DNA from: Nitrosopumilus sp. | GTDB taxonomy: Archaea; Thermoproteota; Nitrososphaeria; Nitrososphaerales; Nitrosopumilaceae | DNA length: 64,000 nt | NCBI GenBank assembly: GCA_965223425.1 | Contig: OZ245003.1 | Coordinates: 1,664,001 to 1,728,000 of the forward strand | Reading direction: 5' to 3' | Shown: in pieces, positions 3,140-58,561 of the stretch | Numbering within the stretch: position 1 is the stretch's first letter | Layout: every line of letters begins with the position of its first letter | Program-made: the position numbers and the translations under genes | The notes under the pieces: model-generated | Seen by the model: the letters and a program-made list of their open reading frames with translations, nothing else | Database searches by the model: none | Told to the model about the DNA's origin: nothing

Positions 3140-3386
3140 TCTGTTATGACTGGATAGAGTATCTTGGCATTAGACTAATCCTACTCATCATCAAGTATTT
3201 TTTATAAATTCTGAAAAATGATTTTAAAAATACTATGACAAAATAATTGACAAAGTGTGAAGAAGATTATGTGTACGGCCAAAACAAATTAGAAACATCA
3301 TATTCTTACTTTCTGTTTGCAACTTCTTTTGAAGTTTAGAAAACACGAAATTTCCGCTTTAAATGTAAAACACATAGTCCACTTCA

Positions 3387-12050: not shown

Positions 12051-13910
12051 ATGGTTGTGGCAAAGAGACAGATAAAAAAGGAGGAGATAAAGTCACTGGC
12101 GCTGCATCCACTGAACATCAGATATGCCTCAGAGGAGTCAGTCCATGGAACCACCGAGCTTGACTCGATACTGTACAAGTATTCCGATTTAATCAACTCC
12201 ATCTCAAGGCCGCTGACAATTGATGCCGTAAAGGACTATGAGACGCTGATGTTCAACAAGACCCCCCATTTGTGCAACTTTGACCGCGTGATATTCAACT
12301 CCTCTGAAAACCTAGAGCCCATGCTGCACTCAAACTCGATGGAATTTTATCCAGTAGAGACAAGAAAGTGGGAGGTCGAAAAGGAACTCTCAGACCACAT
12401 GGTGCTGGCGGGGGGAATGCACTGCAAGATGTACACCCTTACAAACATGCATGCCGAGCTGCCGCCCGGATGGATTTACGAGCCGTTTTCCAATTCCGAT
12501 TTTCTGAGAATATTCATCAAGCCCGTCCCAAAGGAAAGGCACCTAAAGACAATCAACTCACACAAGTCACTGCAGGCCACCAGGAGCTCGGCCGAAGACA
12601 TGGACCAAACTGACGACGTGGCGGCAATCAGGGAGCTTGTACTGAATGCAAAGACTGACAACCTGTTCTCAGTTATAATCAATGCGGGAATTCTGGGGAT
12701 TGATGCCGAATCCATGCAGGAGAAAATAAAGGAGTTTGAGGCCTCTGACAACAAAAACAGAACAGAGATGTACTCCATGAAGAACGTGCAGTCAAAGTTT
12801 CTGCGCGGACAGATGGGACAGAAGCACCTGATGGTCCGCAGCTCAATGCCCGCACTCATTCCGTTTGTAACATCGGAGATTTATGAGGACGGCGGATGTC
12901 TCCTGGGGCGCAACATGATTACCGGCAACCCGGTAAAGTGGGACATCAACCAGAGGATCAACAGGAATACAGTCCTGGCAGCAACGTCGGGTTCCGGCAA
13001 GACCACCCTTGCAATGATGATAATCCACGCGTTTGAGAAGATGTATCCGGACACCTTCATCTTCGTGATTGATCCCGAATCCGAGTACAGGGCCTTGTCT
13101 GACAACATGGGATTCCATTATTTGGACTATTCATCGGGAACAAAGCTCGGGTTTGACGTGTTCAAGATGGTGGCAGACCCCATCTCGGCGGTAGAGACGC
13201 TCTGCGATGTGCTGCAGGTGCCCTCACTTGATCGGACCCTGCCGTTCCAGGCGGCGGCCAGGATGTCGATCAGAAAGGAGGACAGGGACTTTTTCAAGTT
13301 TTATGATGAACTGGTAAAGCTGGAGGAGGGCTCCCATGGCGCCACGCCATCGCAGTATTTCTCAATTCTGGCCGAGCCGCCATTCAATACGCTGCTGCAG
13401 GGCAGGCCGCCAACTGACAACAAGATTGTACTCTCACTCAAAAACATAGGAAGTGCGGGAGGCGCGGTGCAGAGAATTATCACGCAGATTGCCCTGGCAT
13501 ACGCGATGGGAAAGTCGCTGATGATGCCCAAGATTGTGCCAAAGCTCTTCATGTTGGACGAGGTCTGGATGCTTCTCCAGCACGAATCCCTTGGAAACTA
13601 CATACAGAACCTCTCAAGGCGCGGAAGAAAATACAACATAAACATGATGATGGCATCGCAGAACATCGAGGACATGACAGAGAACCCGGCGGCAAGAAAC
13701 GTGCTGGTCAATTCGGACACGGTGATGTTTCTGAGGCAGTCTGAAACCACTCTAAAGTCCCTTGTCACGCATTTCGTGCTGTCTTCGGAGGCTGCAACTA
13801 CTCTGATGCGGCTGAAGGTGGGGCAGGCGATGATAAAATTCGGGAATAGCATGGTACCGGCAAACGTAATGCCCGACGAGGAGCAGCTCAAGCTCTTCAA
13901 GCCAAAGTGA
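12051..13910 (+). CDS. virB4: VirB4-like conjugative transfer ATPase
   Basis: Walker A ATSGSGKT, 'IDPESEY', Walker B MLDEVW, 'RRGRKYN', 'ASQNIED'. Confidence 0.8.
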   Translation: MVVAKRQIKKEEIKSLALHPLNIRYASEESVHGTTELDSILYKYSDLINSISRPLTIDAVKDYETLMFNKTPHLCNFDRVIFNSSENLEPMLHSNSMEFYPVETRKWEVEKELSDHMVLAGGMHCKMYTLTNMHAELPPGWIYEPFSNSDFLRIFIKPVPKERHLKTINSHKSLQATRSSAEDMDQTDDVAAIRELVLNAKTDNLFSVIINAGILGIDAESMQEKIKEFEASDNKNRTEMYSMKNVQSKFLRGQMGQKHLMVRSSMPALIPFVTSEIYEDGGCLLGRNMITGNPVKWDINQRINRNTVLAATSGSGKTTLAMMIIHAFEKMYPDTFIFVIDPESEYRALSDNMGFHYLDYSSGTKLGFDVFKMVADPISAVETLCDVLQVPSLDRTLPFQAAARMSIRKEDRDFFKFYDELVKLEEGSHGATPSQYFSILAEPPFNTLLQGRPPTDNKIVLSLKNIGSAGGAVQRIITQIALAYAMGKSLMMPKIVPKLFMLDEVWMLLQHESLGNYIQNLSRRGRKYNINMMMASQNIEDMTENPAARNVLVNSDTVMFLRQSETTLKSLVTHFVLSSEAATTLMRLKVGQAMIKFGNSMVPANVMPDEEQLKLFKPK

Positions 13911-16627
13911 TGACACCGGTCAGTAACGACTATTCCGTGATTGGGTACGTCGGGGACAATGCGGATTCGGGCAGGCCTGTGGGGAAGAAAACCGGCAACC
14001 GGCATTCCGGGACGGAATGCGCCGGGGAGAGGATGCTCTCCATTCCAAACAAAATCAGGCAGAACTTTGCAATTTTCGGGGAGATTGGTTCGGGCAAGTC
14101 CTCGATACTGCGGCTGCTGATACTCCAGGACATCCAGGCCGGGAGGGGGTTTCTCCTGGCTGAAAACCACAACGAGCTGTCAAGGGAGATACTCTCAATG
14201 ATTCCGCCCGACCAGTACCACAAAATCGTGTATGTTAATCTGACATCGCTGAGAAAATGGGACAAGACGATGCGCTTTAATCCGCTGCGGTGCGATGATC
14301 CGGTGGATTCTGGGATGGTGGCGCTGACATTCACCGAATGCATGGCAAGGGCGTTTTCTGACTCGTGGGGGGCGCGTGTCGAGACGTGCACCAGGAACGG
14401 CGCCCTTGCAACGATTGGCACGTCAAGCAATACCATCGGAGTCATGCTGAAGCTGCTCACTGACAAGGCCTACCGGGAGGCCTTTGTTCCGACCATACAG
14501 AACAAGCAGGCAAGGGACTTTTTTCTCCACGTGTACGACGAGCAGTATCCAAAGGAGGCAGGAGGTGTCGTCTTCAACAAGCTTAACAAAATGATGACAA
14601 TCCCGGAGATGGATGCGATGTTCAACACCAGCAAGTCGTCAATTGACTTTGCCAAAATAATCGATGAGGGAATGTACGTCATACTTGATTTTGGCGGAGG
14701 CCTCCCCGATGATATGGTACGGTTTCTCGGAAACGTCTTCATGCACCTGTTCTATACCACATACAGGAAGAGGGTCAAGGAGCCTGACGGCACCTACAGG
14801 CCGTTTAACCTGTATCTGGACGAGGTGCAGACGTTCTCGCCATCAATGATTCGTGAGCTGCTCAATACCGTGAGAAAATACGGCATCAAAATGACGGTGG
14901 CAACGCAGTCGGTATCTGCACTGGACAGGGACCTCTCCGACGAGATTGCCACGCTGTGCCGCGCAATTGCGTGCTTTAGGTGCGACGTAAAGACTGCCGC
15001 ACACCTCAAGGCCATACTTCCGTGTACCGTGGAGAAGCAGCAGGCACTGTCATGGCACGTCTTCTCGTTTTATTCCGGAGGGGATTCGCCAATAAAGGCA
15101 GTAGCCAGGACAAGACACCTGCAGGTAGCGCAGAGGTGGGAGCAGGCGGCAAGATCCAGCGTGGAGAGGCTTGGGGAGTTTGTCTCACTGGAGAAATACT
15201 ACAACCAGTCCGGAGGAAACGCCGAGGTGTTGCTGTCCCCGCTCGAGTTTGGAATACTGAACTACCTTCGCATGGAGAACAGGGACGTTTCACGGGACGA
15301 GATAACCAAGGTCATGACAAGAAGGTACAGGACTGATGCCAGAACAGTGGCTTCTGCGATAAATGACACGCTGATTGACTCGCACCATTTTGTCGAAAAG
15401 CACGACATACTCACCGATGACGGGGACAGCAACTTTGAGTCGAGGTACTCTGTCACGTCCACTGCAATCAAGATTGTATTCTCAAAGGCGGCCTCGGGCA
15501 GACGTGCGGGAGGGGACATGCACCTTGCAATGATATTCATGATTCAGGACGTGCAGATGAACCTCGGAAATTACTGCGTTGTGGACAGGGGGACTGGCGC
15601 TGCAAGGCATGCCGACCTGCTGATGTTTTCCCCAGAGAAGATAAGGGACGGCGAGGGAAATGAGATAGCATACCACCCTCACGAGTGGTCAAAGGATATA
15701 ATCGCAGTAGAGGTGGAGACTGCCCCTGGAAAGCACATGGAGCAGGTAGTCACAAACTACAAGAAAAACCACGAAATGGGATACTTTTTGCAGTTTGTAG
15801 TTTTTTCAGAAAGTGACAAGGAGAAGATAGTCAACGCGTTCAGACACGCAAAGATAGGCCAAAAGGAATACTCCATCACGGTCATGAACACGGGCATTCT
15901 GACCTCAGTGGATATGAACTCTGAATCAGTAAGGCAGTTCAGCCCGATACAGACATCGATATTTTCCATTCTGTTAAACGCCGGCGGAATGGCAGCAGAG
16001 CAGTACATCATTGACAACTCATGGAGACACGAGCCAAAACATATCATGGAAACCCTTGCCTCCATGGCAAAGAAGGGCGAGCTTGGGTCTGAGGAGAGGC
16101 AGATCCAGAACCCGTCCAATCCCGATGATCCGTCCGACAAAAAGACAGTAAGGATGTGGAAGCTGGCAGGATACTCTTCCTCTGCAAACAAGAAAAAAGA
16201 CGAAGAGAAAAGAGACGGCGTGGCACCAAAGCTGACAGAGGACACATTTTCCGTATCACGACCTGAGCCGATGGGGCTGTACAGCAGGGACCACTATGAT
16301 CCCGATCCTGGGAAAAAAGACAGGGGGACAGAAGAGGACTCGGAAGCGAAGGGAATGGTACGGCAGTCTGTGAGGGGGGCATGTCCACAGAAAGACAAGG
16401 ATACGGAACCGGAGAAGGCCACGGAACGGAATCATGATGACATCTACCGGGATCTTGATGAGAACATGCTGCTTGACATTTTCATCGCACACGACGTAAA
16501 CGACGAAAAAGAGGACATGCGGAGAATAAGGGAGGTGCTCAATGTGCGCGGGTTCTGCATCAAGCGGCGCGGCCACAACAACTTTTTTGTTGCAAAGATT
16601 CCAAAAAAGAAAAATTCCTCAAGGTGA
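13907..16627 (+). CDS. virD4: VirD4/TraD-like coupling ATPase with long C-terminal extension (possible wHTH + PD-(D/E)xK-like domain)
   Basis: GEIGSGKS, 'RFNPL', LYLDEVQ, 'RKYGIKMTVATQS'; extension carries 'HADLL...IAVEVET'. Confidence 0.75.
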   Translation: MMTPVSNDYSVIGYVGDNADSGRPVGKKTGNRHSGTECAGERMLSIPNKIRQNFAIFGEIGSGKSSILRLLILQDIQAGRGFLLAENHNELSREILSMIPPDQYHKIVYVNLTSLRKWDKTMRFNPLRCDDPVDSGMVALTFTECMARAFSDSWGARVETCTRNGALATIGTSSNTIGVMLKLLTDKAYREAFVPTIQNKQARDFFLHVYDEQYPKEAGGVVFNKLNKMMTIPEMDAMFNTSKSSIDFAKIIDEGMYVILDFGGGLPDDMVRFLGNVFMHLFYTTYRKRVKEPDGTYRPFNLYLDEVQTFSPSMIRELLNTVRKYGIKMTVATQSVSALDRDLSDEIATLCRAIACFRCDVKTAAHLKAILPCTVEKQQALSWHVFSFYSGGDSPIKAVARTRHLQVAQRWEQAARSSVERLGEFVSLEKYYNQSGGNAEVLLSPLEFGILNYLRMENRDVSRDEITKVMTRRYRTDARTVASAINDTLIDSHHFVEKHDILTDDGDSNFESRYSVTSTAIKIVFSKAASGRRAGGDMHLAMIFMIQDVQMNLGNYCVVDRGTGAARHADLLMFSPEKIRDGEGNEIAYHPHEWSKDIIAVEVETAPGKHMEQVVTNYKKNHEMGYFLQFVVFSESDKEKIVNAFRHAKIGQKEYSITVMNTGILTSVDMNSESVRQFSPIQTSIFSILLNAGGMAAEQYIIDNSWRHEPKHIMETLASMAKKGELGSEERQIQNPSNPDDPSDKKTVRMWKLAGYSSSANKKKDEEKRDGVAPKLTEDTFSVSRPEPMGLYSRDHYDPDPGKKDRGTEEDSEAKGMVRQSVRGACPQKDKDTEPEKATERNHDDIYRDLDENMLLDIFIAHDVNDEKEDMRRIREVLNVRGFCIKRRGHNNFFVAKIPKKKNSSR

Positions 16628-23291: not shown

Positions 23292-26027
23292 CTGGTAGCA
23301 CCAGAGAATCTATCTCTGGAGGAGATCAAGACAAATGCCATAAATTTTTCAGAGAGATGGAAAAATGAAAAGAATGAAAAATCAGAGGCCCAGACCTTTG
23401 TTAATGAGTTCTTTGCAGTGTTTGGGTTAGATAGAAAGACAGTTGCAAGATTAGAAGAGCACCCAGATAATTCACCTGATTGGATGGATTGCTTTTGGAA
23501 GAGCAAATTAATAATTGAGATGAAAAGTCTTGGAGAAAATCTAGATAAGGCAATGGAGCAGGCACTCAGTTATTATGTACAACTGAAAAAAGATGAAGAG
23601 CCACGACACATACTGGTTTGTGATTTTGAACACTGGTATATTCGTGACAAAAAAGAAAACACAGATCACTTTTTCATACTATCTGAACTAGTTGATAATA
23701 TAGGGCTTTTTGGGTTTATGACAGACAGACCTAAGCTGATACGTGCAGATCCTGTAAACTTGCATGCATCAGAAACCTTAGGTAAAATCTTTAACATGTT
23801 AAAAGCAGCTAACTATGGGACTCATCATACAGAATACTTTTTGACAAGGCTTGTGTTCTGTCTGTTTGCTGATGACACTGGCATATTTGGTGATCATGGT
23901 AAATTTCAAGCCTACATTAAAGAATCTACCTTGGAGGATGGCTCTGATTTAGGCCGTTATCTCGCATACTTGTTTGGCGTACTAAACCAAGACAGAGACA
24001 CACGCTCCAAAACAATGGACTCTAAAACTCGTTCATTCCCATACATCAACGGTGCGTTGTTTGAAAAGCCAATAGAGTTTCCTGATTTTAATGGCAAGAT
24101 GAGAGAGTTATTAATTCAAGCAGGTGACTATGACTGGTCTAAAGTATCACCCGCAATTTTTGGCAACATGTTCCAGACCGTAATGGATCAGGATGCACGC
24201 CGTGAGATGGGGGCTCATTACACCAGTGAGGAAAACATACTCAATGTCATCAGACCGTTGTTTTTGGATAAACTAAATGAGGAATACGACGAGATAAACA
24301 GCATAGCTGATGATGCCAAAAAAGCCAGATTTGTAGAATTTCAAAACAAGCTTGCAAGCTTGACGTTTTTAGATCCTGCATGTGGCAGTGGAAATTTCCT
24401 AGTAATAGCATACAGGGAAATAAGAAGATTGGAGCACCGTGTGATTATGAAGATACATGGTTATGCGGGCAAAAGAACGGATACTGACGGATTATCAAAG
24501 GTAGATGTAAACCAATTTTATGGAATTGAGATAATAGAATTTTCCTCTCGTATTGCAGAGACATCGCTTTGGATGATGGATCATATTATGAATGTGGAAT
24601 TATCAAACAGATACGGATATAGATTTAGAAGGATACCAATTAAGAAAAAACCCAATATTGTATGGAAAGATGCATTGGAGTTTGACTGGAACGAACTTCT
24701 GCCAAGTGAGGAATGCTCTTACGTATTTGGGAATCCCCCGTTTGGCGGTTCAAAGACGATAACTAAAGAGCAGAGAGGGCAAGTACAGCGTATAGCGAAT
24801 ATTGAAAGAAGCGGTGGAACGTTGGACTATGTTACTGCATGGTTTTTTAAGGCATGTGAGTATATACCACACACCAAATGTCCTCAAATTGCATTTGTGT
24901 CCACTAACAGTATAACTCAAGGAGAACAGGTAGGGCAGCTGTGGCCCGCTATGTTTGAAAGGCATGGTGTGGAAATATCCTTTGCATATCAGTCATTCAA
25001 GTGGGAGTCAGAGGCAAGAGGCAGGGCACAGGTGACTGTAATTATAATAGGTCTTACAAGAAACGATGACAGGAAACGACTATTCCATTATGATGACAAT
25101 GGAAATCTCATTGAGATTAATCCTGAATGTATCTCCCCCTACCTAATTGAAACATCAAAGACACTTCCGATAGTAATGGAGACATCAAAACCACTCAACG
25201 GTTTCCAAAAAATGAAGATGGGTTCTAAACCCATAGATGGCGGAAATTACATTTTTACCAGTGATGAAAAGGAGAAATTTCTTGCAGAAGAGCCAAACGC
25301 AAAAGATTTTTTCAGACCGTATGTAAATGCGGATGAATTTCTGAATGGCAACATGAGATCAATCTTGGCATTGCATAATATTGAGCCACATGAGCTGAGA
25401 AGACTGCCGAGAGTTATGAAACGAGTTAACTTGGTGAGATTATTCAGAAAGAAAAGCATAGATAAAGGAACAAAAAAACTGGCGGATAATCCTACATCTT
25501 ACCATCTTAATGTGATACCTACGTCCACATTCCTGATTATACCACGTGTTACTTCTGAGAAACGTGAATATGTGCCAATAGGTTTTTTGGAGCCTCCTAT
25601 AATACCTAGTAGTGCCACTATGGTTATAGAGAATGCCTCTCTTGACATGTTCGGACTTTTGACTTCAAAAATGCACATGATATGGCTTAGAACAGTTGGT
25701 GGCAAGCTGAAATTTGATCTTAGGTATTCTAAAGGAATAGTATACAACACATTCCCAATTCCAACTGATTGGAGTGAAAAATCAAAAACTTTGTGGCCAT
25801 ACGCACAATCCATACTTGATGCCAGAAAGAGTCATCCCGAGTCCACATTGGCAGACCTCTATGATCCGACGGCAATGCCAACTGACCTGAAAAATGCACA
25901 TCAAAAACTGGACAAGGCTGTGGAGAAATTATACAGGAAAAAACCGTTTGAATCAGACAGTAAGAGGCAGGAGTTCCTGCTGGAAGAGTATCAAAAGATG
26001 ATAGATGATCATCAAACTACTTTATAG
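23292..26027 (+). CDS. MmeI-like type IIL restriction-modification enzyme (endonuclease + m6A MTase + TRD)
   Basis: 'MDCFWKSKLIIEMKS' PD-ExK; 'GAHYTS', 'LDPACGSGNF', 'GNPPF', 'TLADLYDP'. Frame is open upstream of 23418 with MmeI-like 'EKSEAQTFVNEFFAVFG', so the true start is uncertain. Confidence 0.88.
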   Translation: MVAPENLSLEEIKTNAINFSERWKNEKNEKSEAQTFVNEFFAVFGLDRKTVARLEEHPDNSPDWMDCFWKSKLIIEMKSLGENLDKAMEQALSYYVQLKKDEEPRHILVCDFEHWYIRDKKENTDHFFILSELVDNIGLFGFMTDRPKLIRADPVNLHASETLGKIFNMLKAANYGTHHTEYFLTRLVFCLFADDTGIFGDHGKFQAYIKESTLEDGSDLGRYLAYLFGVLNQDRDTRSKTMDSKTRSFPYINGALFEKPIEFPDFNGKMRELLIQAGDYDWSKVSPAIFGNMFQTVMDQDARREMGAHYTSEENILNVIRPLFLDKLNEEYDEINSIADDAKKARFVEFQNKLASLTFLDPACGSGNFLVIAYREIRRLEHRVIMKIHGYAGKRTDTDGLSKVDVNQFYGIEIIEFSSRIAETSLWMMDHIMNVELSNRYGYRFRRIPIKKKPNIVWKDALEFDWNELLPSEECSYVFGNPPFGGSKTITKEQRGQVQRIANIERSGGTLDYVTAWFFKACEYIPHTKCPQIAFVSTNSITQGEQVGQLWPAMFERHGVEISFAYQSFKWESEARGRAQVTVIIIGLTRNDDRKRLFHYDDNGNLIEINPECISPYLIETSKTLPIVMETSKPLNGFQKMKMGSKPIDGGNYIFTSDEKEKFLAEEPNAKDFFRPYVNADEFLNGNMRSILALHNIEPHELRRLPRVMKRVNLVRLFRKKSIDKGTKKLADNPTSYHLNVIPTSTFLIIPRVTSEKREYVPIGFLEPPIIPSSATMVIENASLDMFGLLTSKMHMIWLRTVGGKLKFDLRYSKGIVYNTFPIPTDWSEKSKTLWPYAQSILDARKSHPESTLADLYDPTAMPTDLKNAHQKLDKAVEKLYRKKPFESDSKRQEFLLEEYQKMIDDHQTTL

Positions 26028-27891: not shown

Positions 27892-28170
27892 CTAGAGAAA
27901 GTCCGGGTCGTCATCATCTGTCGGAATCTCCGACTTTTGGCCGCCTGTGTGATTGTTGTCTCTTTCTGTTTTTATTTTGTCATTTATTTCCGCAATCACA
28001 TCCAGGTCAAGGCGCTTTAGGATCATCTCTGCATTTTCTACAAGAAACCGGACATCGTTTAAAATGCCGTCAATCTTTCTCCTGGTCCTTAATTTCTGAA
28101 GCCTTAGTCTTCCAGGCGAAAAAGAGTCAGGTGAGACAATCGCCCGCTTTTGTTTGTCAGTTAGTGCCAT
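27892..28170 (-). CDS. Small protein coupled to ParM-like gene (candidate ParR-like adaptor)
   Basis: ATG at 28170 overlaps the end of the actin gene; basic N-terminus, acidic tail. Confidence 0.45.
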   Translation of the reverse strand: MALTDKQKRAIVSPDSFSPGRLRLQKLRTRRKIDGILNDVRFLVENAEMILKRLDLDVIAEINDKIKTERDNNHTGGQKSEIPTDDDDPDFL

Positions 28171-29015
28171 TTCTGCGCCTTTGTAAGCATCCCAAGCGCA
28201 TTTGAAAATACTGGGTCCCTTGCTATCTGGCACTTGTCGCGTATTGCCTCATTTTTTATCTCAGAGACAAGCTTTGGTATCAGTGCCCCGCCTCCGGCCA
28301 GAATCACAGGAAGTTCCGGAAAGTCAATGACTGTCTTTGTCAGGGAATCAGATATAGAGTCTGCAAGAAGCTTTCTGTACTGTGAGAGCTCCGGAGTGTC
28401 CTTTGCAAACAGGCTCTTCTCCTTGACGTATCCGGTCTTTGTGTCAGTTATTGCAGAGGTGATGTCTCCGACTCCGTGATCCAGTGTCAGGCCTGAGGCT
28501 ATCTTGCCATTGACTACTGCCATTATCTCAGTGGTTCCATGTCCGATGTGGCACACAATACCGTCCTCCAATCCCTGGTGGATGAGGGTGGCCCTTGCCT
28601 GGTATATGAGCCCAAAGAACTTTGGTCCAAGCGCCTTCATTACTGCCTCGCGAATCTTTTTGCTGTGGTCCCTTGCAGCATATGGGACTCCTGCAACGAT
28701 GACCATTTGTGCATACCTGCCAACGGCAGATGTCCTGGGGGTTCCGAGGATCTGGTCCATTGAGTATTTTATCAGGCTGATATAGTCCTCCATTATTGTT
28801 GGAATCCCGCGATATACGGGCCTCTTTAGTGTCATTGTTTTTATGGTTTCATATTTTGCAGCATCGTATCCGATGTGTGTCGTATCCTTGTTGTTTGACT
28901 CTAGCTCCAGGTGCCTGCCAGTGGCAATTAGTGACGGGAACTTTGTCAATCTGGTCGATGTTGCAATCTTTACAAAGCCGGTTCCAATGTCGAGTCCGGC
29001 AACATATTCACTCAT
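28161..29015 (-). CDS. ParM/StbA-like actin-fold ATPase
   Basis: Phosphate-1 'GLDIGTGFVK', phosphate-2 'HIGHGTTE', adenosine 'LAGGGA', 'SNALG'. Confidence 0.8.
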   Translation of the reverse strand: MSEYVAGLDIGTGFVKIATSTRLTKFPSLIATGRHLELESNNKDTTHIGYDAAKYETIKTMTLKRPVYRGIPTIMEDYISLIKYSMDQILGTPRTSAVGRYAQMVIVAGVPYAARDHSKKIREAVMKALGPKFFGLIYQARATLIHQGLEDGIVCHIGHGTTEIMAVVNGKIASGLTLDHGVGDITSAITDTKTGYVKEKSLFAKDTPELSQYRKLLADSISDSLTKTVIDFPELPVILAGGGALIPKLVSEIKNEAIRDKCQIARDPVFSNALGMLTKAQKWH

Positions 29016-32000: not shown

Positions 32001-32053
32001 GTCATGCTGATGTGCTCCCAATGAGCGAAACTGCCATTATGGCAGTCCATGGC
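32001..32053 (+). ncRNA. Type I hammerhead ribozyme
   Basis: GTCATG-CTGATGT-GCTC ccaat GAGC-GAAA-CTGCC attat GGCAG-TC-CATGGC; cut after 32047; ATG at 32049. Confidence 0.8.
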
Positions 32054-32714
32054 AAAACAAATTCTCAAACAGATTGCAAAAGCAATCGCAATAACCGTGA
32101 TTGTAGTGATTACGGCATCCATTGTGTGGACATTTGTTGTTCCGATGCTGCCACTGAGCCAAGTGTCAGATATTGTAGAAGAGAATGTGAAAGAGCCGTT
32201 AGAGAAACTTGTTTCACAAACACCGCTTGCACCAGATGAGCAAGTCACAAATGGAACGCCAAAGAACAATGACGCCCCATCGTCATACGATGACATTGAC
32301 GACCCGCCATCGGACATAGTTACCTCATATGATCCACCAGACATGGATTTTCTGAACAGTGGCACTGTAACCAAAGTCATTGACGGCGACACGATTGATA
32401 TCGACAACATGCGATTCAGACTTGCTCTGATAGACACTCCTGAGAGAGGCGAGGCCGGATACAATGAGGCAAGGATGTTCCTGTTGAAGAACTGTCCCGT
32501 ACAGTCGTTGGCACTGTATGATATCGACGACAAACAGAAGACGGACAAGTACGGACGATACATAGGAAAGGTATGGTGTTATGGATATCCACCTGTCGTT
32601 CCTGAAAATTCCATGAACAGCAAACTTGTAAACGAGGGACATGCAGTGGTTGTCTCAACGTTTTGCAGGTCAAGCGAATATGGAAATGAGCAGTGGTTAG
32701 ACCCACACTGCTAG
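32049..32714 (+). CDS. Membrane-anchored thermonuclease (SNase family)
   Basis: 'VTKVIDGDTI', 'RLALIDTPE', 'DKYGR', 'NSKLVNEGHA'; N-terminal TM. Confidence 0.88.
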   Translation: MAKQILKQIAKAIAITVIVVITASIVWTFVVPMLPLSQVSDIVEENVKEPLEKLVSQTPLAPDEQVTNGTPKNNDAPSSYDDIDDPPSDIVTSYDPPDMDFLNSGTVTKVIDGDTIDIDNMRFRLALIDTPERGEAGYNEARMFLLKNCPVQSLALYDIDDKQKTDKYGRYIGKVWCYGYPPVVPENSMNSKLVNEGHAVVVSTFCRSSEYGNEQWLDPHC

Positions 32715-32868
32715 TATTGTTCTCTTTCACATACCATCCCCCCCCTTTTTTTCTAATCAAATTTTTTGTACGGACATCTGATTATTTTTTCGTGACCTGG
32801 CATGTCATCCCAAATCTTGCACCAGTATGTTCAAACATACCTGACAGGCAGGCAAGTGTGGGGATGAT

Positions 32869-32954
32869 GGTGAGTTTACCTAGCAAGGTAAGGTGTCCGA
32901 CTGATAATCGGAATGTCTGTCAGGACAGCGTGGGTTCGAATCCCACACTCACCG
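32869..32954 (+). tRNA. tRNA with GAU (Ile) anticodon on a class II, Ser-like body
   Basis: Acceptor GGTGAGT/ACTCACC + G73; D ACCT/AGGT; AC TCCGA-CTGATAA-TCGGA; long V-arm TGTCT/GGACA; T GTGGG-TTCGAAT-CCCAC. Confidence 0.88.
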
Positions 32955-33009
32955 TAATACTCCTGCATATTAAAACATTCAGGAGAGAAATTCAAAAAAG
33001 TGAACAAAA

Positions 33010-33393
33010 ATGGGAATGTATGATGAGGTCGTAGCGGCCATAACATGTCCCTGCTGCAAGAGAAGGTATCTGGATTATGGAATCCAAACAAAGAACTTTC
33101 GGTGCGTACTCTCCAAAATATTTGAAAATGACGACACGAGGAATATTGTGGAGGAAAGGAAATCGTTTGGAAACATAAGGAACGAGACGTTCAAATGTTT
33201 TACATTCTGTGTAATGTGTTCTGCGGGAATCAATATGACAGGAGTCATATCAGAATATGTGTTTCGTGGAGTCAAGGCGGACTCGTTTAATGAGAATATA
33301 AAAAGGTCCGGAACAGATGGAATTGCAATTGATCCCTCCATCATGACAGAAAATGGAAACCATGCAGCAGAAAACGGACTGCTAAAACCCTGA
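33010..33393 (+). CDS. Zinc-finger hypothetical protein (MGMYD...CPCC...QTK family)
   Basis: Two CxxC-type pairs; duplicated at 34146..34529. Confidence 0.65.
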   Translation: MGMYDEVVAAITCPCCKRRYLDYGIQTKNFRCVLSKIFENDDTRNIVEERKSFGNIRNETFKCFTFCVMCSAGINMTGVISEYVFRGVKADSFNENIKRSGTDGIAIDPSIMTENGNHAAENGLLKP

Positions 33394-33673
33394 TTATTTT
33401 TTCGTGACCTGGCATGTCATCCCAAATCTTGCACCAGTATGTTCAAACATACCTGACAGGCAGGCAAGTGTGGGGATGATGGTGAGTTTACCTAGCAAGG
33501 CCGGAACAGATGGAATTGCAATTGATCCCTCCATCATGACAGAAAATGGAAACCATGCAGCAGAAAACGGACTGCTAAAACCCTGATTATTTTTTCGTGA
33601 CCTGGCATGTCATCCCAAATCTTGCACCAGTATGTTCAAACATACCTGACAGGCAGGCAAGTGTGGGGATGAT

Positions 33674-33828
33674 GGTGAGTTTACCTAGCAAGGTGTCGCC
33701 CCGATGAGACGATTGCTTCTGAATTAACATCGCTGGTTCAAATCCCGCACTAACCTCCATTAGTTGTTTCGTTCAGTGTGCGAGCGTCTTAGAAGTGGAC
33801 ATCGTGGGTTCAAATCCCACACTCACCG
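33674..33828 (+). pseudogene. Degenerate GAU tRNA followed by a second tRNA 3' half
   Basis: Shortened D arm, mismatched stems, ends ACTAACC-TCCA at 33759; then a second T-arm + ACTCACCG ending 33828. Confidence 0.6.
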
Positions 33829-34002
33829 TTACAACCCTCAATATTAGACCATTAATGAGGTAAATTCAAAAGTGAAAACCATGCAGCAGAAAACGGACTG
33901 CTAAAACCCTGATTATTTTTTCGTGACCTGGCATGTCATCCCAAATCTTGCACCAGTATGTTCAAACATACCTGACAGGCAGGCAAGTGTGGGGATGATA
34001 AT

Positions 34003-34090
34003 GGTGAGTTTATCTAGTAAGGTAAGATGTCGCCCTGATGAGGCGATTGCTTCTGACGGAGCATCGTGGGTTCAAATCCCACACTCACCG
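34003..34090 (+). tRNA. Second intact GAU-anticodon, long-variable-arm tRNA
   Basis: D ATCT/AGAT; AC TCGCC-CTGATGA-GGCGA; V-arm TGCTTC/GGAGCA; G73; compensatory changes relative to the 32869 copy. Confidence 0.88.
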
Positions 34091-34145
34091 TAATACTCCT
34101 GCATATTAAAACATTCAGGAGAGAAATTCAAAAAAGTGAACAAAA

Positions 34146-34529
34146 ATGGGAATGTATGATGAGGTCGTAGCGACCATAACATGTCCCTGCTGCAAGAGAA
34201 GGTATCTGGATTATGGAATCCAAACAAAGAACTTTCGGTGCGTACTCTCCAAAATATTTGAAAATGACGACACGAGGAATATTGTGGAGGAGAGGAAATC
34301 GTTTGGAAACATAAGGAACGAGACGTTCAAATGTTTTACATTCTGTGTAATGTGTTCTGCGGGAATCAATATGACAGGAGTCATATCAGAATATGTGTTT
34401 CGTGGAGTCAAGGCGGACTCGTTTAATGAGAATATAAAAAGGCCCGGAACAGATGGAATTGCAATTGATCCCTCCATCATGACAGAAAATGGAAACCATG
34501 CAGCAGAAAACGGACTGCTAAAACCCTGA
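34146..34529 (+). CDS. Duplicate of 33010..33393
   Basis: Differs at 2 residues. Confidence 0.65.
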   Translation: MGMYDEVVATITCPCCKRRYLDYGIQTKNFRCVLSKIFENDDTRNIVEERKSFGNIRNETFKCFTFCVMCSAGINMTGVISEYVFRGVKADSFNENIKRPGTDGIAIDPSIMTENGNHAAENGLLKP

Positions 34530-34645
34530 TTATTTTTTTGTGACCTGGCAATCCTTCCAAACCCGCATCAGATGAGCAATCATCCTGACAGGCAGACGGG
34601 TGTGGGAATGGCGCGGTGTTTGAGACATCAAAGGTAAAACATACA

Positions 34646-34975
34646 ATGAATGCAAAAGGAGCCATAACACATCTGGTAAAAAGGCCGATGGGAGTCGTCT
34701 TTACAGGAATGCTGATTTTTGGGCTGTTCCTGATGATTGGAGGTGACTCGGGCGTACCGGAAATACTGAGAATATGGCCAGTCTACGGAGTGTTTATTAT
34801 TCCTGCCATAGTAGGAATAACTATGCTGCTACTTACTGCTGATGAGGTATCCAAGATACACGGACGTTTTGACTCAGTAGAGTCAAAGCTGGACAAGCTG
34901 GACAATATAGAGTCAAAGCTGGACAGCATAGAGTCAATTCTGAAAGAGATAGCGGGATATCTAAAACCAAAGTAG
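34646..34975 (+). CDS. Two-TM membrane protein with coiled-coil tail
   Basis: Likely ATG 34646; duplicated at 38259..38609 with variable heptad number. Confidence 0.6.
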   Translation: MNAKGAITHLVKRPMGVVFTGMLIFGLFLMIGGDSGVPEILRIWPVYGVFIIPAIVGITMLLLTADEVSKIHGRFDSVESKLDKLDNIESKLDSIESILKEIAGYLKPK

Positions 34976-35383
34976 CACACGGCAGTTCTCACACATTCAT
35001 TTTTTATCTGACCTGGCAATCCTTCCAAACCCCGTATCAGATGAGCAATCATCCTGACAGGCAGACGGGTGTGGGAAAGGCATCAGACATTTGCGATGTC
35101 CTAGATCAAAAATGAAAAACTATGAAGAAAATTTTGAAGAATGGTGTGCAGAATATGAAAACACAATGCACAGCAATGGTTCTGAAATTATGACCCGTAC
35201 GGACGGCGACATCGGAATCAAATACGTTGTCAGGAAAGACACCGACGGATGTGGCGCATACCTCATCTGGGAGTAATTACAACCTGAAAACACCAACTAT
35301 TTTTTCGTGACCTGGCATGTCATCCCAAATCTTGCACCAGTATGTTCAAACATACCTGACAGGCAGGCAAGTGTGGGGATGAT

Positions 35384-35538
35384 GGTGAGTTTACCTAGCA
35401 AGGTGTCGCCCCGATGAGACGATTGCTTCTGAATTAACATCGCTGGTTCAAATCCCGCACTAACCTCCATTAGTTGTTTCGTTCAGTGTGCGAGCGTCTT
35501 AGAAGTGGACATCGTGGGTTCAAATCCCACACTCACCG
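35384..35538 (+). pseudogene. Copy of the degenerate tRNA/half-tRNA unit
   Basis: Same sequence as 33674..33828. Confidence 0.6.
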
Positions 35539-35974
35539 TAATACTCCTGCATATTAAAACATTCAGGAGAAAAATTCAAAAAAAGTGATACAAAATGTTC
35601 GAAGAGGCAAAGTACAAACTCAAAAGAAGCGTCTACAAAAAGACAATTTGTAGAAACTGCAAAAGGGAACGATGGGAAGGGCACCCCGAACTCAACGAAT
35701 GTGATTGCTGTCAGATAGGTCTCTGATTTTTCTGCAATGCCTTGTTGAAAGGTTCCAAAACCATATTTTTTGTGACCTGGCAATCCTTCCAAACCCGTAT
35801 CTGATGAGCAATCATCCTGACAGGCAGACGGGTGTGGGAAAGGCAAAAATGCTTGCGGCATTTATGAAAAAATATGCAAGAAAAAGACACAACAATCAAA
35901 ATAAGAACCGGTCTGATTCGACGACAGCAAGTCATCTTTGTTGCAATGATGGCAGTCGGGCATTCCTGATTACC

Positions 35975-36304
35975 ATGAGCCAGCTAGTGGACCAAAGACT
36001 CCTAAGCGAGGGCATAGCCTTTTTTACCATTGGATTCGTAGGAATACTAATGTCCTGGACTACAATGGATATCGGAGCTGGCATCAAGGAGGCAATACAT
36101 GAGGTCGGCCAGCAAAATCAAAGGGCAATTGCCGAAAGCAATCAAAGATTTGACAAGACTCTAAACCGCATTGCCGAATCCCAAAAAGATATTGCCGAAT
36201 CCCAAAAAGATATTGCCAAGGTGTTAGACAATGTCACAAAATCTCAGGAACGCATGCACAAATCCCAAGACGACATCAAAGACACGATAAAAAACAAAGA
36301 CTAG
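35975..36304 (+). CDS. Single-TM coiled-coil protein
   Basis: ATG 35975; TM then heptads IAESQKD x2. Confidence 0.5.
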   Translation: MSQLVDQRLLSEGIAFFTIGFVGILMSWTTMDIGAGIKEAIHEVGQQNQRAIAESNQRFDKTLNRIAESQKDIAESQKDIAKVLDNVTKSQERMHKSQDDIKDTIKNKD

Positions 36305-36808
36305 GTTCTTCAAACATCCAAACATTTTTTCGTGACTGGGTCATACAGTCCAAACCCGTTTTACCTTTGGCGCAAGCCGCAGGCCGACCCAGCGGACGGG
36401 TGTGGGATATAATGAATTCTCATATGAGAATAAGCGTCCAGATGAAAGACGATACTTTCATAGCAATATAACGTCTGTTCTGGCACGTAACATCTGCCAG
36501 AAATACGACCAAACGACAAAGGTTTGGGAGTGATCCTGGTTGCTATAAAAACGATAGCAACATTCACAGAAATGCGACCAAACGACAAAAGCATGCAATG
36601 CCGACAGCACATGGCATCCTTTCCCAGTACGACACGGTATGTCAAATAACAGGCAGACTATGGATTATTGCGCTTGATGATAATCCACCATCCAGATATT
36701 TTTTAGCATAGCCGAGGCTATGGGCGGATGACGACATCAGCTGGGGATATGATGCCAGGCGCTTCAGACATCGTGCATGTGTTTTGTGAAAAAAAGGAGT
36801 GAAACCAA

Positions 36809-38119
36809 ATGGTTTTAAAAAATACAATCAATACAAGTACAAGTATTAAAAATGTACAAAATCAGTCAGTAGGCAAGAAAGGCAGGATCTCAAACAGGGA
36901 TCTCATAAGCATCAGCAGAAATCTGAGTGATCTTGCAAACGGATACATCACGTACAAAACGTACAGGGACGGACGTACCGGCTTCTTCCGTAACAGCACA
37001 ATGATAGCCGTCCTGGAAGAAGGAATGGTAACAACACTGTTTGGCGGTGAGCCAAGGCAGGCAAGCGTGGCATCATTGCTGGATGGCGCATCCCGCAACG
37101 AAGGCATCAAAAAAGAAATTGCACAATGTGCAAGATTTGCCGCAGACTACACCCCCGCAGACGAGGTGGATTCTGAGAAGGACAAGGCCCAGATGCACAG
37201 GGCAGACTCCAGAAGGCCGACAATCAAGGACCGACTCGTGCTGTACTTTGCCGGAATGTCAGATGCCAGCATCCCATGCATGGTGCACGGCAAGGACAAA
37301 TTCAAGATTCTTGTGCCACACAAAGGTACGACAAGAGTTTTTGAAATCAACCGGTCAGAATTCGGCGGAATATCAAAACTGGTAAGAATGGTGCTCAGAA
37401 GGAACCACCAAAAACGCAAATTCACGGCACCTACAGACGAGGTCAAGTTTGCAATAAGTGACGCCGCACGCCTCCCAACGAGAAGAAGCGCCACGTCACA
37501 TGTCACACAGGGCCGCGTGGAACTCTCCGTGATCAGCCCCAGAGAAGAGGTGATAGAGAAAACAACAACGGTACTGGCATCTCTGATAAAATGCGAGGGG
37601 TTTGAAAGAATCCTATCTGAGGAGACAGAGTCATACCAGGCAGAGGAAGTCATCTATGAAAGATTCGGACCAGAAAAACTGCCAACCATCCCGGTGTGGT
37701 TTCCTACCGATGTCACTGCCAACGCAAAAATGGCACACGGAATGGAACGCATCCACGGAACGGAACCTGTAAGAAAGGTATCAAAACACACCACCCGCAA
37801 ATTCTATGGCGCCAAAGAGTCTGAGCTTGAGGATATTGAAGCAAGCAAGAGACACACATATGAGCAAATCCACGCTGCAATGAAATACATAAGGGAGAAC
37901 GGATACTGTACTTGCAATGAGAAGTGCATGTGTGCCGATTTGCCATACGAGGAGAACACCCTGAACATCGCAGAGGTGGCAGACATCTGCTCAGGCATGA
38001 AGGTCGAAGATCTGAGTCTTCTCATGCAGACAATGAAAAGCTGCAATGTCTTGGGGCCAGAGTATTCAGTTGTCTGCTCTGCTGCCGCACGGCTCAGATC
38101 ACAGAACAGTGCGAAATAG
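36809..38119 (+). CDS. Hypothetical protein (436 aa)
   Basis: Long ORF preceded by SD-like AGGAGTGA; Cys cluster near the C-terminus. Confidence 0.7.
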   Translation: MVLKNTINTSTSIKNVQNQSVGKKGRISNRDLISISRNLSDLANGYITYKTYRDGRTGFFRNSTMIAVLEEGMVTTLFGGEPRQASVASLLDGASRNEGIKKEIAQCARFAADYTPADEVDSEKDKAQMHRADSRRPTIKDRLVLYFAGMSDASIPCMVHGKDKFKILVPHKGTTRVFEINRSEFGGISKLVRMVLRRNHQKRKFTAPTDEVKFAISDAARLPTRRSATSHVTQGRVELSVISPREEVIEKTTTVLASLIKCEGFERILSEETESYQAEEVIYERFGPEKLPTIPVWFPTDVTANAKMAHGMERIHGTEPVRKVSKHTTRKFYGAKESELEDIEASKRHTYEQIHAAMKYIRENGYCTCNEKCMCADLPYEENTLNIAEVADICSGMKVEDLSLLMQTMKSCNVLGPEYSVVCSAAARLRSQNSAK

Positions 38120-38258
38120 CACACGGCAGTTCTCACACATTCATTTTTTATCTGACCTGGCAATCCTTCCAAACCCCGTATCAGATGAGCAATCATCCTG
38201 ACAGGCAGACGGGTGTGGGAAAGGCGCGGTGTTTGAGACATCAAAGGTAAAACATACA

Positions 38259-38609
38259 ATGAATGCAAAGGGAGCCATAACACATCTGGTAAAAAGGCCG
38301 ATGGGAGTCGTCTTTACAGGAATGCTGATTTTTGGGCTGTTCCTGATGATTGGAGGTGACTCGGGCGTACCGGAAATACTGAGAATATGGCCAGTCTACG
38401 GAGTGTTTATTATTCCTGCCATAGTAGGAATAACTATGCTGCTACTTACTGCTGATGAGGTATCCAAGATACACGGACGTTTTGACTCAGTAGAGTCCAG
38501 TTTGGGTAGAATAGAGTCAAAGTTGGGTGGAATAGATACAAAGCTGGACAAGCTGGACAGCATAGAGTCAATCCTGAAAGAGATAGCGGGATATCTAAAA
38601 CCAAAGTAG
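38259..38609 (+). CDS. Duplicate of 34646..34975
   Basis: Identical N-terminal part, extra heptad. Confidence 0.6.
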   Translation: MNAKGAITHLVKRPMGVVFTGMLIFGLFLMIGGDSGVPEILRIWPVYGVFIIPAIVGITMLLLTADEVSKIHGRFDSVESSLGRIESKLGGIDTKLDKLDSIESILKEIAGYLKPK

Positions 38610-38939
38610 CACACGGCAGTTCTCACACATTCATTTTTTATCTGACCTGGCAATCCTTCCAAACCCCGTATCAGATGAGCAATCATCCTGACAGGCAGAC
38701 GGGTGTGGGAAAGGCGCGGTGTTTGAGACACCAGTTTTTTACTCAGAAAAATTTCACAAATAGCAAGAGTGCACAGTGCACACAATTTTGTCATGCAAGT
38801 GATGATCAAATACATTCATCTGAATGAAAAACATCTACGGAATTTTTTCCGTCAAAAACAAAAAACACCGTCTGGGACATGTTCCCGGAAAAAAACCAAA
38901 GAATGTTCTTTGGAATAATCAACAAAGGAGGTTGATAAA

Positions 38940-57396: not shown

Positions 57397-57735
57397 ATGA
57401 AAAATGAAAAAACAATATTGGAACGGACCGGGTCGAAAATGAATAAAGGCGATAAGCAGTACCACCTTTTTTCAGACCCCGGACACGGATGGCTCCGTGT
57501 CAAAAAATCAGAGATAGACTCGCTGGGAATAGCAGAGAAGATCTCAAAGTACAGCCACACAAGCAAGAGATGGAAGACAAAGTACGTGTTTCTTGAGGAG
57601 GACGACGACATGGAAGTGTTCATCGCGGCAAAGAAAAAACAGAATCCCGGCTGGGAGCTTGATGCCGTAGAACACACACTGCCGGAGAGGGAATCGATAA
57701 TCCGGAGCTTTGAGACATATGACCCAAAATTCTGA
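57397..57735 (+). CDS. Conserved MGE/phage hypothetical protein
   Basis: 'SDPGHGWL.V', 'ISKYS', 'LEEDDD'. Confidence 0.65.
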   Translation: MKNEKTILERTGSKMNKGDKQYHLFSDPGHGWLRVKKSEIDSLGIAEKISKYSHTSKRWKTKYVFLEEDDDMEVFIAAKKKQNPGWELDAVEHTLPERESIIRSFETYDPKF

Positions 57736-58561
57736 AAAGGCAACAATGCTTTTGCACAAAATTGCAGAACAATTCTCACAAAAGGAATTCCCAAGAGCGT
57801 GCGCAAAGACGTTCATAACCGTGCCGGACGGGAACATTCCGTCCTCATCATGGTCCCTTGGCAACAAGATACTCATGATGATGTCAGGAACGGCAGACGC
57901 AAGGGGATACAGGCAGTGGGAAAAGGTAGGCCGACACGTCAAGAAGGGCTCAAAGGCAATATACATACTTGTCCCAATGACCAAAAAAATCGAGGACAAA
58001 AAAACGGGCGAGGAGAGGGTCGCAATGATAGGGTTCAGAGGCGCGCCCGTATTCTGCTATGAGGATACCGAAGGCCAGCGTCTCAAAACATACGAGCCCC
58101 GGGTACTTCCGCCACTGTTTGATCTTGCAAAAAAGAACGGCATTGACGTGAGATACGCAAACTCAAAGAATGGGGAATACGGCTCCATCCAACTCCATAC
58201 CAAAAAAATAACGCTCAGTACAGAGTCTCATGACACGTTTCTGCACGAGCTGATGCACTGGTACGACGGCAAAAAATACAAGCTAAAGCCAAAGCAGGAT
58301 GCCGAACAGGAGATAGTGGCACAGCTTGGCGCATGCGTTCTGGCAGAGATGTACGGGTATGACGCACGGGAGTACACGTGGAACTATGTCTCCTCATACG
58401 CAGAAACCAAGTCGCCGCAGGAGATTGGACAGAGGTGCTTCAGAGTCCTTGGCCGCGTGCAGCAGGCAGTCAACGCAATACTGTATGATGCAGACGAATG
58501 GGTGAAGGAAGCGGAAAATCCGCGTTTAAAAGAAAACCGTCCAATAGAGGTTGAAAACTGA
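57719..58561 (+). CDS. ArdC-like antirestriction/ssDNA-binding protein with zincin HExxH domain
   Basis: 'WSLGN', 'ARGYRQWEKVGRHVKKGSKAIYIL.P', 'PVF....TEG', HELMH, 'EIVAQ'. Confidence 0.75.
   Translation: MTQNSEKATMLLHKIAEQFSQKEFPRACAKTFITVPDGNIPSSSWSLGNKILMMMSGTADARGYRQWEKVGRHVKKGSKAIYILVPMTKKIEDKKTGEERVAMIGFRGAPVFCYEDTEGQRLKTYEPRVLPPLFDLAKKNGIDVRYANSKNGEYGSIQLHTKKITLSTESHDTFLHELMHWYDGKKYKLKPKQDAEQEIVAQLGACVLAEMYGYDAREYTWNYVSSYAETKSPQEIGQRCFRVLGRVQQAVNAILYDADEWVKEAENPRLKENRPIEVEN

Follow-up and report, generated by a model that had tools for sequence, protein, structure and literature searches.

A covarying pseudoknot element preceding genes, tRNAs and small RNAs in Nitrosopumilus and related mobile elements, a candidate self-cleaving RNA

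To our knowledge, few natural classes of self-cleaving ribozyme have been described, and none of them was first found in ammonia-oxidising archaea. [quoted passage not shown] In the minimal theta ribozymes, found in gut phages, J4/2 begins with the catalytic C (PMC10879173), and the hatchet ribozyme carries a non-conserved hairpin (P0) just 5' of its cleavage site (PMC4604424). Here we describe an element of 68-76 nucleotides (nt) which occurs in exactly 11 copies, all on the plus strand, at positions 32793-38711 of a 64,000-nt stretch of DNA (the whole of which was analysed and is called the window; G000:C1:1664001-1728000) from G000, a 2.64-Mb archaeal genome of Nitrosopumilus type with a full-length archaeal small-subunit rRNA (1460 bits). 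The evidence supports a real, covarying pseudoknot outside the known families, and by analogy the element may work like a 5'-cleaving ribozyme.

Read from 5' to 3', the element consists of UGA, a 7-nt knot strand, a short linker, the first strand of an outer stem (4-7 bp), AAA, the first strand of an inner stem (5-6 bp), a variable linker that may contain a hairpin, the 7-nt knot partner, a 3-nt joiner starting with C, the returning inner strand, UGUG and the returning outer strand. The first-pass annotation of this DNA had been unable to assign the motif to a ribozyme or riboswitch, and the comparison with Rfam 15 (4227 families) agrees with it. At gathering level only two tRNA-like genes were matched in the window, and no family overlapped the window copies at E-values up to 10, or the copies in 25 related loci at E limits of 5, 0.1 and 0.05; the families without a match included twister, twister-sister, pistol, riboswitches, RAGATH motifs and resistant RNAs. 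No description of the motif was found in the literature, supplements aside.

The element is no member of the HDV-like, hatchet or hammerhead classes or of any Rfam family, and its likeness to each of them is partial. It shares its strand order with HDV-like ribozymes (a 7-bp first helix made from the 5' end, a second helix that closes at the 3' side, and a hairpin between them), and the near-invariant C at the first joiner position recalls the catalytic C of the HDV-like and theta ribozymes, a role that is only predicted for the element. HDV ribozymes are nested double pseudoknots of P1, P1.1, P2, P3 and P4, whereas the element has only P1- and P2-like helices and an optional P3-like one; since the joiner has 3 nt and the inner hairpin is missing in the relatives L225, L205 and L215, neither a P4 nor an L3/P1.1 pairing is possible. 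We know of no HDV counterpart to the conserved UGA, AAA and UGUG, and the HDV-family models of Rfam gave no match at E up to 10 in the window or at the three limits used for the related loci. Hammerheads resemble the element in setting, being found on the same contigs and the same strand, in equivalent positions of the 5' untranslated region (5'-UTR; contig L172) or in the same module (contig L018), but the element has another helix topology and lacks the CUGANGA/GAAA core at its conserved positions, and the hammerhead models matched other sites of L018 and L172, never the element itself. Viral exonuclease-resistant RNAs are likewise small pseudoknots, carry invariant unpaired bases and head a downstream RNA that is protected, but the knot of the element uses its 5' tail and none of these families matched. 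Integron attC sites are also repeated, imperfectly paired sites with conserved unpaired bases between small cassettes, and the YCCAAAC ... GUGUGGGR boxes of the element vaguely recall the attC core boxes; unlike attC, which needs no crossing helix, the element has one that covaries, and it also precedes multi-gene blocks and sits in phage-like contigs. Theta ribozymes and the element both lie in mobile elements beside tRNAs, the former at the tRNA 3' end and the latter at the 5' end, as far as the cited part of the theta report goes (PMC10879173). With hatchet the element shares an upstream non-conserved hairpin like P0 (a few nucleotides away, in some copies), roughly a dozen unpaired, invariant bases among bulges, candidate cleavage at the extreme 5' edge and an occurrence mostly in metagenomes and mobile contexts (PMC4604424). 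The hatchet consensus, as given in the part of that report cited here, has four nested stems (P1-P4), 13 conserved bases and no pseudoknot (PMC4604424), whereas the element has three helices, one of them crossing, and the Rfam Hatchet model gave no match at E up to 10. The k-turn, the bulge-helix-bulge splicing motif and the permuted hammerhead (a class presented in the cited part of PMC10085705) were rejected by eye, their defining bases being absent from the conserved positions.

Fold, conserved core and distribution

Sequences were collected by pattern scans of the genomes of the order, of assembled-genome contigs, of viral contigs and of metagenomes, followed by a pairing filter; a covariance model (R1) was then built from 26 sequences and used in further searches. 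R1 models the nested stems only, leaving out the knot helix, and its E-values are rough. The final alignment held 68 copies (63 distinct) from 30 sources, and over the three helices 91.7% of its cells were standard pairs, compared with 71.2% after column shuffling (none of 500 shuffles reached the observed value). Because the relatives are not independent, shuffle controls overstate significance, and slid controls together with the many pair types are a better guide; the slid controls were 33-52% paired (at most 51.6%), and two-sided changes were seen in 13 of the 16 pairs (6 of 7 in the knot helix, 3 of 4 in the outer stem and 4 of 5 in the inner stem). A structure-blind MAFFT alignment gave similar figures, with 90.8% paired relative to 73.4%, and two-sided changes in 10 of the 16 pairs. 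Since the knot columns are absent from R1, the knot pairing was not fitted to the model. At least four wholly different complementary knot helices were found, of the types CCUGUCA/GGACAGG, CUGGGUC/GACCCAG, CCGGGUC/GACCCGG and CCGAGUC/GACUCGG.

Outside the helices, conservation was concentrated at a few positions of the 63 distinct sequences. The 5' UGA was kept in 60, 62 and 63 sequences at its three positions, the AAA of the internal loop in 63, 62 and 63, and the opposite UGUG in all 63 at every position, while the joiner began with C in 61 of 62. Eleven near-invariant unpaired bases are a pattern typical of a catalytic or tertiary core, and they may form one here. A joiner of 3 nt and a 5' linker of 2-6 nt do not reach far enough for classical H-type stacking, which forces the knot helix to one side of the two-part stem; this side-by-side geometry would bring the UGA, the AAA/UGUG loop and the joiner C together.

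Most of what had been claimed for the window from a first reading of its letters was borne out. A motif search found 11 plus-strand matches within 32792-38652 (14 in the whole window, where 5.6 were expected and none of 100 shuffles reached 14), R1 recovered the same 11 copies as strong matches, and the copies fall into the three sequence types described, A (five copies), B (five) and C (one). The outer stem with its AAA/TGT internal loop was found as claimed, the loop now being refined to AAA opposite UGUG, and the covariation proposed for the crossing helix is far stronger in the 63 distinct sequences than could be seen from three types. The window copies do have the inner tetraloop hairpin; it is missing in relatives of the L225, L205, L215 and L188 type, and is no general part of the fold. 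R1 gave four other window/locus matches, of 12-16 bits (E 0.04-0.44), which were taken to be noise. The host genome has four additional copies outside the window array, at two paralogous loci.

Searches with R1 placed the element in 11 of 151 genomes of the family (G000 included), in 5 of 27 genera and usually in clusters of 2-9. Carriers besides G000 include G372, of the same genus, and G145, of the same family, and the arrays of G437 encode the same membrane/coiled-coil proteins as the window. The scan of assembled-genome contigs returned 15 stretches, only three of which had a complementary knot (metagenome-assembled genomes labelled Nitrosopumilus, Nitrosopumilaceae and 'archaeon'). In the first scan of viral contigs L143 was the sole real match among the matches listed, the others being chance; a tighter scan gave two stretches, L143 and L056, the latter outside the 40 best by pairing score. 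The metagenome scan gave 68 stretches, from which 14 loci and a weak one (L192) were retained once pairing score and model search had been applied; the others were chance matches. Three contigs, L188 (the sequence of viral contig L143), L164 and L221, carry genes for DnaB, a phage replisome organiser, DUF5131, RecT, Erf and Mu-Gam and are probably bacterial-phage-like; in all three the element comes after a hairpin instead of a T-run.

Position at unit boundaries and neighbouring RNAs

All copies were intergenic and on the coding strand, about 10-35 nt past a stop codon, and in the window array the element preceded almost every gene, tRNA or small RNA. A T6-T7 run lay 2 nt upstream of each of the 11 window copies, in agreement with the T-run that the first-pass annotation had placed before every copy. 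Among 42 distinct copies, the 5' edge was marked by a run of at least five T in 34, by a stable hairpin (-14.7 to -21.3 kcal/mol, ending 0-2 nt before the UGA) in six and by neither in two, the end of the T-run or hairpin lying 0-4 nt from the UGA. On the other side, many copies were followed 10-40 nt downstream by a Shine-Dalgarno sequence and a start codon. In the GC-rich contig L227 the order stop codon, T-run, element, GGAGG and start codon recurred in four successive intergenic regions, and in G316 nine to ten copies each headed a block of 1-8 genes. Two G316 loci (L228 and L229) had three more conserved small hairpins between each copy and the GGAGG/start, and the operon-end genes upstream of the G316 copies were mutually homologous; the shared hairpins and homologous upstream genes imply that whole intergenic modules have been repeated.

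In the window, all type A copies had been described as ending 1-4 nt before the 5' end of a tRNA, which held in full for two of them. Copy A1 (32793-32867; R1 62.0 bits), with a T6 run 2 nt upstream, is laid out as UGA, the 7-nt knot strand, the outer stem with the AAA/UGUG loop, the inner hairpin, the knot partner and the joiner CAG, and ends 1 nt before a tRNA-like gene (32869-32954, plus strand, 59.6 bits); copy A4 (33924-33998; 64.0 bits) ends 4 nt before another (34003-34090, plus strand, 56.1 bits). Copies A3 (33598-33672; 62.0 bits) and A5 (35308-35382; 61.6 bits) are each followed, after 1 nt, by a weak tRNA-like sequence (33674-33756 and 35384-35466, respectively; 24.8 bits, cut-off 29), and A2 (33405-33479; 62.0 bits) by no more than a 21-nt fragment of a tRNA 5' end, with a duplicated open reading frame (ORF) tail after it. 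Copy B1 (34541-34608; 79.0 bits) lies between a 127-amino-acid (aa) ORF, whose stop is 12 nt upstream, and a membrane/coiled-coil ORF, whose ATG follows after about 40 nt. The remaining copies are B2 (35009-35077; 72.9 bits), B3 (35773-35840; 79.6 bits), the single type C copy (36333-36408; 73.4 bits), with its alternative and fully complementary knot helix CUGGGUC/GACCCAG, B4 (38153-38221; 72.1 bits), 34 nt past the stop of a 436-aa ORF, and B5 (38643-38711; 72.1 bits), the last copy of the array. Beyond the window, a 73-nt tRNA-Asp begins a few nt past the element in L239 and L247, and a third genome (L238), which shares the element and flanks, lacks the tRNA. Altogether, tRNAs follow the element in three genomes (the window host and those of L239 and L247), and no tRNA was found at 21 other element loci.

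Other small RNAs, and ribozymes, accompany the element in two contigs. L018 (G145:C31), a Nitrosopumilaceae contig, has four copies in 2.3 kb, arranged in modules of T-run, element, C/D-box small RNA, canonical type I hammerhead and ORF. The small RNAs (1885-1945, 620-680 and about 200-267, minus strand), directly 3' of the pseudoknot, read by eye as box C, 12 nt, D', C', 12 nt, box D and a terminal stem; they stayed below the cut-offs of the Rfam C/D models, and their guides had no good complement in the 16S rRNA of G000 (3-4 mismatches at best; 23S rRNA and tRNAs were not searched). The hammerheads of L018 (2170-2218, 1796-1844 and 531-579, minus strand) scored 33.8, 35.4 and 28.2 bits, respectively, against a cut-off of 34, and are predicted to cut 1 nt before the AUG of the next ORF; such cuts would leave an archaeal mobile element with leaderless mRNAs. 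In L172, two type II hammerheads (3163-3235 and 786-857, minus strand; 25.3 and 35.9 bits, cut-off 37) lie just upstream of the Shine-Dalgarno sequences of two genes, and the element, with a hairpin before it, holds the equivalent 5'-UTR place at a third gene. L172 is a phage- or plasmid-like contig and also encodes a protein with a metalloprotease-type HExxH motif, seen by eye. No hammerhead was found in 17 other element loci (8 and 9 scanned).

Candidate functions

The element is probably transcribed within long multi-gene transcripts of mobile elements. Archaeal promoters have a TATA box about 26 nt upstream of the start, and the 16S promoter of the host carries TTTATATG; where such a box was sought, the element-bearing intergenic regions held only a pure T-run or a GC hairpin, and in the GC-rich relatives G316 and L227 the interval from the T-run to the next gene had no TATA-like box. 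Since there is no TATA-like box, and since a start about 25 nt past the T-run would exclude two of the covarying strands, the units would be co-transcribed with the upstream RNA. The transcript would then fold into a compact pseudoknot in which a 7-bp helix of 5' tail and loop packs beside the two-part stem, with the AAA/UGUG loop, the 5' UGA and the joiner C forming a conserved core, and would mark the 5' boundary of each unit (mRNA, tRNA or C/D-box small RNA), parting the unit from the upstream RNA. The most likely means is self-cleavage by a new class of ribozyme, at or near the 5' edge, leaving an upstream RNA that ends in the U-run or hairpin; alternatively, a cut in the 3' UGUG loop would give the downstream tRNA, small RNA or mRNA a leader of 10-15 nt. 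That the element is a new self-cleaving ribozyme, cutting more likely at its 5' edge, is the explanation towards which we tentatively lean. A self-contained RNA-processing module is suggested by the eleven-base core, the spread over two domains, the placing where units meet, the presence of hammerheads in the same niche and the U-run or hairpin at the 5' edge. The occurrence both in archaeal islands and in contigs with DnaB, RecT, Erf and Mu-Gam genes is better explained by a self-sufficient RNA function than by a site for a host-specific protein. A wider proposal, that the element represents a new small self-cleaving class of about 60-75 nt, with a UGA/AAA/UGUG/C core, found in archaeal conjugative islands and bacterial phages, where it cuts polycistronic transcripts into individual mRNAs, tRNAs and C/D-box guide RNAs in concert with hammerheads that make leaderless mRNAs, seems doubtful.

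Several results weigh against self-cleavage. The minimum free energies of the nested fold were no lower than those of shuffled sequences (z -1.31 to +0.19, the energy of the pseudoknot being uncounted), and wobble pairs gave no strand signal, with 19 cells of G.U type and 22 of A.C type. The T-run looks like an archaeal oligo-T terminator, and read-through of it has to be assumed. Hammerheads occurred in only 2 of 25 element loci at relaxed thresholds and nowhere in the window array, and the element lacks the defining features of every known ribozyme class tested. Many candidate RNAs near ribozymes failed to cleave when tested, according to the part of the study cited (PMC6765202).

The main rival, which we consider unlikely although it draws on the same position and fold, is a nuclease block: a host enzyme would cut at the U-run or past the hairpin, and the fold would stop 5'-to-3' exonucleases or a torpedo-type termination factor, so that the downstream unit survives and the polymerase continues; or else the fold would be the site for a protein endonuclease or RNase P. 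Locking the 5' tail in the knot helix would bury the 5' end, the T-run abuts the element in most copies (34 of 42), archaeal termination and cleavage factors act at U-tracts, and the spread across domains is compatible with a purely mechanical block. Such a block would, however, hinder the maturation of the C/D-box small RNAs directly downstream; moreover, no exonuclease-resistant family of Rfam matches, the resistant folds known to us close their ring with downstream sequence and not with the 5' tail, and a conserved partner protein was not found, no systematic search for one having been made.

A non-cleaving cis-regulatory RNA is improbable, whether it be an antitermination signal that re-arms the polymerase, a translation enhancer or a binding site for a protein encoded by the mobile element. 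It would account for the single copy that heads each gene or multi-gene block, just past a terminator-like T-run, and for the Shine-Dalgarno sequence and start codon 10-40 nt downstream of many copies, but untranslated RNAs (tRNAs and C/D-box small RNAs) also have the element in front of them, the archaeal and bacterial-type elements differ in polymerases and ribosomes, and RNA made past a T-run cannot act on that T-run.

Among the functions first suggested (a self-cleaving or processing RNA, a nuclease-blocking structure, or a single-stranded DNA promoter or recombination site), processing has gained circumstantial support from the hammerheads and C/D RNAs in the same modules, the tRNA-Asp of two genomes, the T-run or hairpin at the 5' edge and the contigs resembling double-stranded DNA (dsDNA) phages, whereas the single-stranded DNA promoter or recombination site has lost ground. 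An integron-like cassette recombination site, a single-stranded DNA promoter or a priming signal for the complementary strand after conjugation would suit an array of small cassettes with duplications, an island with conjugation ATPases, an element that heads every unit as a promoter would, wobble counts that exclude neither strand, and a contig of sequencing run X6 that joins 35039 to 35803 (B2 to B3) and so skips 763 nt, but a DNA-level site is very improbable, because the two sides of the X6 joint share 43 identical letters, as in an ordinary homologous repeat-to-repeat deletion, the 12 genome matches to the tyrosine recombinase family PF00589 all lie outside the window (the nearest at 1579996 and 1968029, about 84 kb and 240 kb away), the fold has no TATA/BRE-like duplex, dsDNA-phage-like contigs (DnaB, RecT, Erf, Gam) are not transferred as single strands, and the element has RNA devices beside it (hammerheads, C/D small RNAs and tRNAs). 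Besides the B2/B3 joint, the DNA contigs of four runs showed only assembly breaks at repeats.

If self-cleavage is correct, a new class, once validated, would bring both a further catalytic fold and a compact RNA-processing tool. Were there no catalysis, the accessory genes of archaeal conjugative islands and of some phages would still be organised as punctuated polycistronic RNAs, with tRNAs, C/D-box guide RNAs and hammerheads linked by the element in one design. The element is a ready marker for such accessory-gene arrays.

The host island, its tRNA-like genes and cassette duplications

The region around the array has a backbone of two VirB4/TraG-type ATPases, an MmeI-family restriction-modification enzyme, an actin-like (ParM-type) segregation protein, a staphylococcal-nuclease homologue and an ArdC-like protein; to judge from its genes, it is a conjugative-type integrated element. 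The backbone genes lie at 12051-16627, 23418-26027, 28161-29015 (minus strand), 32049-32714 and 57710-58561, and the ORFs taken as genes of the window are almost all on the plus strand. Several ORFs of the island, of 600-1060 aa, had no Pfam match.

The two tRNA-like genes of the array are 86-88 nt long, and both are called Ile(GAU) with a long variable arm, which is an odd pairing for archaea. In the one at 34003-34090 the 'anticodon loop' is CUGAUGA, followed by 11 nt including GAUUGCUU, which is shared with a guide of L018, and then by CUGA; such genes may be hybrids of tRNA and C/D-box RNA, not decoding tRNAs. Past A3 and A5, 33674-33830 and 35384-35540 are composite pseudo-tRNAs, in each of which a tRNA 5' half is followed by a weak T-arm whose acceptor strand does not match and then by a second T-arm with the matching acceptor 3' strand; they look like products of recombination between tRNA-like cassettes. 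Duplications of cassettes were seen at 33385-33690, between 33010-33393 and 34146-34529, and between 34616-34975 and 38229-38609; the duplicated parts, tandem and dispersed, comprise whole cassettes and the tail of the 127-aa ORF, which is zinc-ribbon-like.

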